Source: Escherichia coli O127:H6 str. E2348/69 (lineage in GTDB: Bacteria; Pseudomonadota; Gammaproteobacteria; Enterobacterales; Enterobacteriaceae). Taken from it: a stretch of 64,000 bases of DNA. The stretch's first letter is position 1. Every line of letters begins with the position of its first letter. The DNA lies in the NCBI RefSeq assembly GCF_000026545.1, contig NC_011601.1; one strand, 5' to 3'. The translations under genes were made by a program, and so were the position numbers. The notes beneath the pieces are model-generated. The model did no database searches and was not told the DNA's origin. It worked only from the letters and a program-made list of their open reading frames with translations. This document shows, piece after piece, positions 26,925-27,703 of the stretch.

Positions 26925-27703
26925 TATTCCCACCCAGAATAACCAACTTTATTTTTATGCGGTCACACCGCACCCCGTGATGTCGCCGGGAAGCCCCGGT
27001 AAAAAATAATTAGCATTAGAATAGTTGCGATAAGCTGCAATAAGCAGACCCACCTTTTTGGTTTAATAAGTCCTTACAAATAGAAGGGGGTCTTTACACT
27101 TATCTAAGATTTTTCCTAAATCGACGCAACTGTACTCGTCACTACACGCACATACAACGGAGGGGGGCTGCGATTTTCAATAATGTGTGATGCAGATCAC
27201 ACAAAACGCTCAATTACTTAACATAAATGTATAAGTCATACTTTTGTTTTGGGTGTATTTCAATCTGTTAAAAAATTTTTCACTACACTGGCAAGCAAAA
27301 ATGAAACAGGAATAATCGAAATGGGATGTTGCGCACAGTTAAAATAACTCACCGTAAATAATCATCTGCTATAAATAATCGCTTTAATGCAATACCAGAT
27401 AAGCCATTTTTAAACAAACACTTACCGCACAACAAACTAATTAACTACAAAGAAAGGCAACAATCAATCTAATGTTAATAAAATATTTTACATATATTAA
27501 CCACTTGTTCAATATGGGAAATCAGTACATTATTTTCTTATAAATACAGTTGAAATCATATGATAACCAAGAGTGATTGATTAATTGTCTTTACTAATAA
27601 CCAGACTAATATTTACCTGTTTAACTGAGTTGGGATTGCGTCGTTTCTCCATTAGGAGTAAAGCTTTAATGTCACCTGAAGTTCACAGAATAAGGAACAG
27701 GTT
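26925..27703 (-). promoter_or_regulatory. flhDC class I promoter/regulatory region and long 5' UTR (no IS element present)
   Basis: ~780-bp AT-rich intergenic region between flhD and divergent uspC; contains a CRP-consensus palindrome. Confidence 0.7.
27186..27201. promoter_or_regulatory. CRP binding site in flhDC promoter
   Basis: tgtgatgcagatcaca = TGTGA-N6-TCACA perfect consensus half-sites. Confidence 0.7.

Follow-up and report, generated by a model that had tools for sequence, protein, structure and literature searches.

In Escherichia coli K-12, CRP is listed as an activator that binds upstream of flhDC (PMC5493358), and the same region is described as the target of OmpR, LrhA, H-NS and other repressors, with a role for insertion sequence (IS) elements in its regulation (PMC11237407, PMC5493358). 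The IS-bearing flhDC of laboratory K-12 strains is well documented (PMC11237407, PMC9478672, PMC5493358); IS insertion upstream of flhDC raises K-12 motility, and Barker et al. 2004 is cited for the IS-activated alleles (PMC11237407, PMC9478672). In CFT073, the PapX operator has been placed at a position that matches 27329–27357 of the sequence described here (PMC6246914). For the enteropathogenic (EPEC) strain E2348/69, flagellar expression is condition-dependent, and with a fliC::lacZ fusion glucose was found to raise fliC expression, regulation being suggested to differ from that of K-12 (PMC9032864).

The flhD-uspC intergenic region of E2348/69 was explored within a 64-kb stretch of DNA (the window, to which coordinates refer). 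The region is very probably the native flhDC class 1 control region of this EPEC strain, with cAMP-CRP at −71.5 and without IS activation. It shows the ordinary wild-type organisation of flhDC control in a much-studied pathogen, and represents known biology with nothing novel. Compared to K-12 flhDp, it occupies the orthologous position and has an identical core promoter, the same CRP spacing (−71.5), a 198-nt leader and the same FlhD, but differs by a single base in the CRP site (T in the window, C in K-12, at 27186) and by substitutions at 37 other positions of the leader and the upstream region. The IS-activated K-12 alleles (MG1655 IS1H, W3110 IS5) occur at the same locus and both of their target sequences are present in the window, where, in contrast, the targets are empty and no IS, duplication or transposase accompanies them. 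The corresponding region of LF82 is 99.4% identical over 1,559 bp, while CFT073, which was absent from the 40 matches listed for that 1,559-bp query, shares most of the intergenic differences between the window and K-12 and possesses the same perfect CRP half-sites. All three strains (E2348/69, CFT073 and LF82) are presumably members of phylogroup B2.

The flhDC locus and its relatives

The features of the locus, in order of coordinates, are as follows.

25993–26571, minus strand: flhC, second gene of the class 1 flagellar master operon (open reading frame and RefSeq annotation of E2348/69)
26574–26924, minus strand: flhD, 116 codons with the ATG at 26924, first gene of the operon
26925–27703: flhD-uspC intergenic region, 779 bp
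26925–27122, minus strand: flhD 5' untranslated leader, 198 nt, with the start at 27122 placed by homology
27129–27134, minus strand: putative −10 hexamer TACAGT, −12 to −7 from 27122
27152–27157, minus strand: putative −35 hexamer TTGTAT, 17-bp spacer
27186–27201: CRP site core TGTGATGCAGATCACA, centred at −71.5, aligning with the K-12 site
27202–27703: AT-rich upstream region, 30% G+C compared to 50.5% for the whole window
27218–27221: TTAA, the empty W3110 IS5 target, −96 to −99
27222–27229: CATAAATG, the empty MG1655 IS1H target, −100 to −107
27329–27357: candidate PapX/FocX operator TTGCGCACAGTTAAAATAACTCACCGTAA, a 29-bp imperfect palindrome
27704–28132, plus strand: uspC, the divergent neighbour

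Intact flhD and flhC occur in operon order with motA, motB and cheA downstream, as in a class 1 flhDC operon; beyond the genes that border the intergenic region, flhC, motA and motB flank one side, and otsA and otsB the other. FlhD (WP_001295647.1) is identical in W3110 and in every other strain compared, and its gene has one difference from MG1655. FlhC (WP_001291603.1) has an accession common to K-12 W3110, CFT073 and O157, with nine substitutions in flhC DNA relative to MG1655. The position homologous to MotR, a K-12 small RNA from the flhC 3' end, is 25935–26029 on the minus strand, with two substitutions compared to K-12.

Over the 1,559 bp that span flhD to uspC, the window was 100% identical to three O127:H6 E2348/69 records, and among the matches listed the next-best genomes reached 99.6%. 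When IS1H and its duplication are removed from MG1655, the 779-bp intergenic region differs by 38 substitutions and no indels. Substitutions private to E2348/69, judged against the nearest relatives (FHI_NMBU_03 and LF82) and all other aligned strains, were identified at four intergenic positions (26965, 27282, 27468 and 27485) and at one position in uspC (28012), with none in flhD, and they spare both the core promoter and the CRP site.

Approximately 2.4 kb past the end of uspC, the window carries an IS4-family element, ISEc13, that splits araH (30505–33050) into two fragments (30505–30888 and 32439–33050), with the transposase at 30901–32274 on the minus strand; as a consequence of this split, the high-affinity arabinose transporter of E2348/69 is probably inactive. 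Rfam matches above the gathering score occurred at 5310–5352, 9288–9595, 21466–21543 and 41329–41627 (ES036, MicL, C0465 and three tRNA genes), and there was no family match within 26925–27703.

Insertion sequences upstream of flhD

The original prediction started from the IS1 and IS5 insertions upstream of flhD in K-12, and both were confirmed just upstream of the CRP site, as IS1H in the sequenced MG1655 and IS5 in W3110. The flhD-uspC interval of NC_000913.3 (1,555 bp) is accounted for by the 779 bp of the window, IS1H (768 bp) and an 8-bp duplication of CATAAATG, a sequence with one copy in the window that is duplicated around IS1H in MG1655. The W3110 interval (1,978 bp) likewise consists of 779 bp, IS5 (1,195 bp) and a 4-bp duplication of TTAA, with ACTTAA joined to GGAAGGTGCG at one IS5 junction and CGCACCTTCC joined to TTAACATA at the other.

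For the region itself, the prediction was of an intact control region free of IS elements, with neither a transposase reading frame nor the terminal repeats or target duplications that an insertion would leave, and it was upheld in each of these respects, as well as in the coordinates it gave for the region, which were exact. The sole open reading frame of at least 40 amino acids is a 40-amino acid frame (27585–27707) that overlaps the start of uspC. Alignment to MG1655 minus IS1H was base-for-base collinear, and the length of the W3110 interval agrees once IS5 and its 4-bp duplication are set aside. No IS terminal repeats or target duplications were found in 26925–27703; fuzzy searches of the region with IS1 and IS5 terminal repeats (taken from real sequence) and with assumed end sequences of IS2, IS3, IS4, IS30, IS150, IS186 and IS629 returned no matches, and no adjacent direct repeats of the kind expected as an IS footprint were present there. 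A blastn search (word size 7) with IS1H and the W3110 IS5 as queries had nothing significant anywhere in the 64-kb window. Given the 779-bp collinearity, the lack of IS homology and the single-copy targets, the region does not have the IS and target duplication upstream of flhD that define an IS-activated flhDC allele.

The intergenic region is also collinear with that of eight other E. coli strains, with the exception of 1-bp indels in three of them and an IS3-family insertion in the O145 strain. Using a 450-bp query (27100–27549), chosen because it is too short for IS-separated pieces to be joined, unlike the 1,559-bp query, a single segment covering ≥80% of the query was found in 5,246 of the 5,418 complete genomes of E. 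coli (~97%), and the sampled genomes that failed this criterion include K-12 derivatives. An IS-free flhD upstream region is the usual state of E. coli, with laboratory K-12 as the exception. At ~97% of genomes, the absence of an IS is therefore no distinguishing feature of E2348/69. In O145 RM12522-C8, at about 1240–1452 of its locus, an IS3-family transposase is situated at the uspC end, where in the alignment it takes the place of the beginning of uspC; as this is a natural isolate, IS insertion at the locus is not confined to K-12.

The promoter, the CRP site and its alleles

The start of AsflhD is located within flhD, by 22 nt, and the main form (~220 nt) extends to the flhD promoter (bioRxiv 10.1101/2021.05.11.443715). 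In NC_000913.3, AsflhD is annotated at 1978176–1978395, which maps to 26903–27122 on the plus strand of the window. The annotated end and the published length together put the flhD start at 27122, 198 nt ahead of the ATG, and by homology to K-12 the same start would apply in E2348/69. Six substitutions compared to K-12 occur in the AsflhD-homologous stretch (26903–27122, plus strand), and the count is likewise six for the flhD leader, which this stretch includes. The variants at 26964–26965 fall in the loop of a GCGGT/ACCGC leader hairpin, a loop that also varies between other strains. The core promoter (27088–27185, +35 to −63) has no difference from K-12, and 6 bp separate TACAGT from the start. 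A scan for consensus promoters did not flag the flhD promoter; such a scan is uninformative for promoters that are weak and depend on an activator, for which a miss is to be expected.

The predicted TGTGA-N6-TCACA is present at 27186–27201 (TGTGATGCAGATCACA, contained in the 22-mer ATGTGTGATGCAGATCACACAA at 27183–27204) and agrees with the CRP core consensus at 10 of 10 core positions, while the 22-mer matches 15 of 22 positions of AAATGTGATCTAGATCACATTT, taken as the CRP consensus. It had also been described as consistent with the characterised CRP activation site, which is correct for its position but not quite for its sequence, as K-12 has a C at 27186 (its sole difference in the core site), such that the K-12 site is CGTGA-N6-TCACA. 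Read on the flhD sense strand, this C lies at −64 and converts the promoter-proximal half-site to TCACG, compared to the species-typical TCACA. From the start site placed by K-12 homology (27122), the centre of the palindrome (27193.5) lies 71.5 bp upstream, and this spacing coincides with one of the Class I positions (near −61.5, −71.5, −82.5 or −92.5). At flhDp of K-12, the CRP site was reportedly footprinted at this same −71.5 (Soutourina et al. 1999). From this homology to K-12, CRP would be expected to bind and activate at 27186–27201 in E2348/69.

Two TGTGA-N6-TCACA matches were observed in the 64-kb window compared to 0.06 expected from dinucleotide-preserving shuffles, and none of the 100 shuffles contained two or more. 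The only other perfect match in the window, TGTGATGTAAATCACA (37552–37567), is located 83–98 bp upstream of the small-protein gene azuC (37383–37469, minus strand), which is CRP-regulated.

Across the species, the 51-mer at 27157–27207 carrying the T allele was 100% identical in 3,958 of 5,351 genomes, and the K-12 51-mer carrying the C allele was 100% identical in 401 of ~5,350 genomes, the 401 including laboratory strains and some human isolates. The remaining genomes (~990) match neither 51-mer exactly, with a T at 27186 in all sampled examples. The T and both perfect half-sites were conserved in all eight of the non-K-12 strains aligned (CFT073, an ETEC, an O145, an O157:H7, a B-strain derivative, an O104:H4 and two others), with variation in the 6-bp spacer of some, and a divergent Escherichia genome from a species-representative collection also has a perfect site (TGTGATACAGATCACA), though as an outgroup test of the ancestral allele this one species-representative locus is thin. 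The T in most genomes, in the eight strains and in the divergent Escherichia identifies the perfect palindrome as the common form of the site, which is probably also ancestral, and the K-12 C as probably derived. A search of the full-text literature for the sequence of the site returned no match.

It is conceivable, though we regard it as rather doubtful, that the derived C allele at −64 (27186) weakens CRP activation in K-12. If it does, the C allele could help to explain the poor motility of IS-free K-12 and the ready selection of IS insertions; IS-free wild strains such as E2348/69 would not need an IS, and the K-12 allele would be the interesting one. Although flhDC regulation is judged by reference to K-12, this strain departs from the species norm twice, in the IS insertions of MG1655 and W3110 and in the minority C of the CRP site, and for this reason an "intact" region or a "perfect" site should be judged against the species and not against K-12.

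Proposed regulation and alternative readings

In the proposed working of the region, a weak sigma-70 promoter (TTGTAT, 17 bp, TACAGT) would start minus-strand transcription at or near 27122 and produce a 198-nt leader ahead of the flhD ATG at 26924. Bound to 27186–27201, in the Class I position of −71.5, cAMP-CRP would contact the C-terminal domain of the RNA polymerase alpha subunit and activate transcription, while the 500-bp stretch of 30% G+C, with its predicted sites for repressors and nucleoid proteins, would keep expression conditional. In K-12, the IS1 of MG1655 and the IS5 of W3110, 17–28 bp upstream of the CRP site, would part this stretch from the promoter and so increase expression. 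The "tightly regulated" promoter of the original prediction is plausible, but is more than the sequence can show.

The K-12 setting that the prediction implied does not fit the window, as shown by the 100% identity to E2348/69, the 38 differences from MG1655 in 779 intergenic bp and the ISEc13-split araH shared with E2348/69. The empty targets would also be accounted for by a laboratory K-12 line in which an IS upstream of flhD was never gained or has been lost, as in IS-free MG1655 stocks or BW25113. IS-free K-12 does exist (the 450-bp query is unbroken in BW25113 records), and the FlhD and FlhC proteins of the window are identical to those of K-12 W3110; we nonetheless give such an origin almost no credence, since BW25113 is only 94.9% identical to the window over that query, the sole 100% matches are E2348/69/O127:H6 records, the araH insertion matches the E2348/69 annotation, the K-12 C at 27186 is absent and the near-identity to a K-12 reference expected of a K-12 lineage was not found at the locus. 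The region is thus wild type and unlike MG1655, as had been proposed, because the strain is not K-12. A past IS that was excised and left a footprint altering regulation is equally hard to credit, as argued by the single-copy targets, the lack of adjacent direct repeats and IS-end matches, and the nine other strains that are collinear and without indels at the known insertion sites.

The CRP site leaves room for two further readings. The perfect palindrome could be a strain-specific promoter-up change that renders flhDC unusually strongly CRP-activated in E2348/69, consistent with a site nearer to the consensus than that of K-12 (T for C at 27186) and with the stimulating point mutations that Fahrner and Berg (2015) reportedly obtained in the cAMP-CRP binding region of K-12. 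This is very improbable, however, for an allele present in 3,958 of 5,351 genomes (compared to 401 for the K-12 51-mer), in every aligned non-K-12 strain and in the divergent Escherichia genome, and none of the four private intergenic substitutions of E2348/69 touches the site. Somewhat less remote, yet still improbable, is that the palindrome arose by chance, or that it is secondary to EPEC-specific regulators in governing flhDC expression in E2348/69. The glucose stimulation of fliC in E2348/69 (PMC9032864) favours such regulators, and although it is a readout of fliC and not of CRP or flhDC, simple cAMP-CRP dependence would not predict it; in EHEC O157:H7, a related pathotype, a review describes extra flhDC regulators, e.g., GrlA and Hha (PMC9387321). 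Against this reading, 0.06 such palindromes are expected by chance per 64 kb, and the site is orthologous to that of K-12, at the same position and conserved across the species. Further, the weak core promoter does not differ from that of K-12, which is CRP-dependent, and extra regulators are compatible with CRP dependence.

Under the preferred reading, of a native CRP-activated control region, the AT-rich stretch (27202–27703) would have a repressive role in E2348/69 by homology to K-12. Within it, the centre of the candidate PapX/FocX operator TTGCGCACAGTTAAAATAACTCACCGTAA (27343) is at −221 from the putative flhD start. The 29-bp palindrome at 27329–27357 agrees in position with the PapX/FocX operator published for uropathogenic strains, and its sequence is assumed to be that of the operator. 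CFT073 is identical to the window across 27329–27357, while 27340 is different in both K-12 and the B strain.
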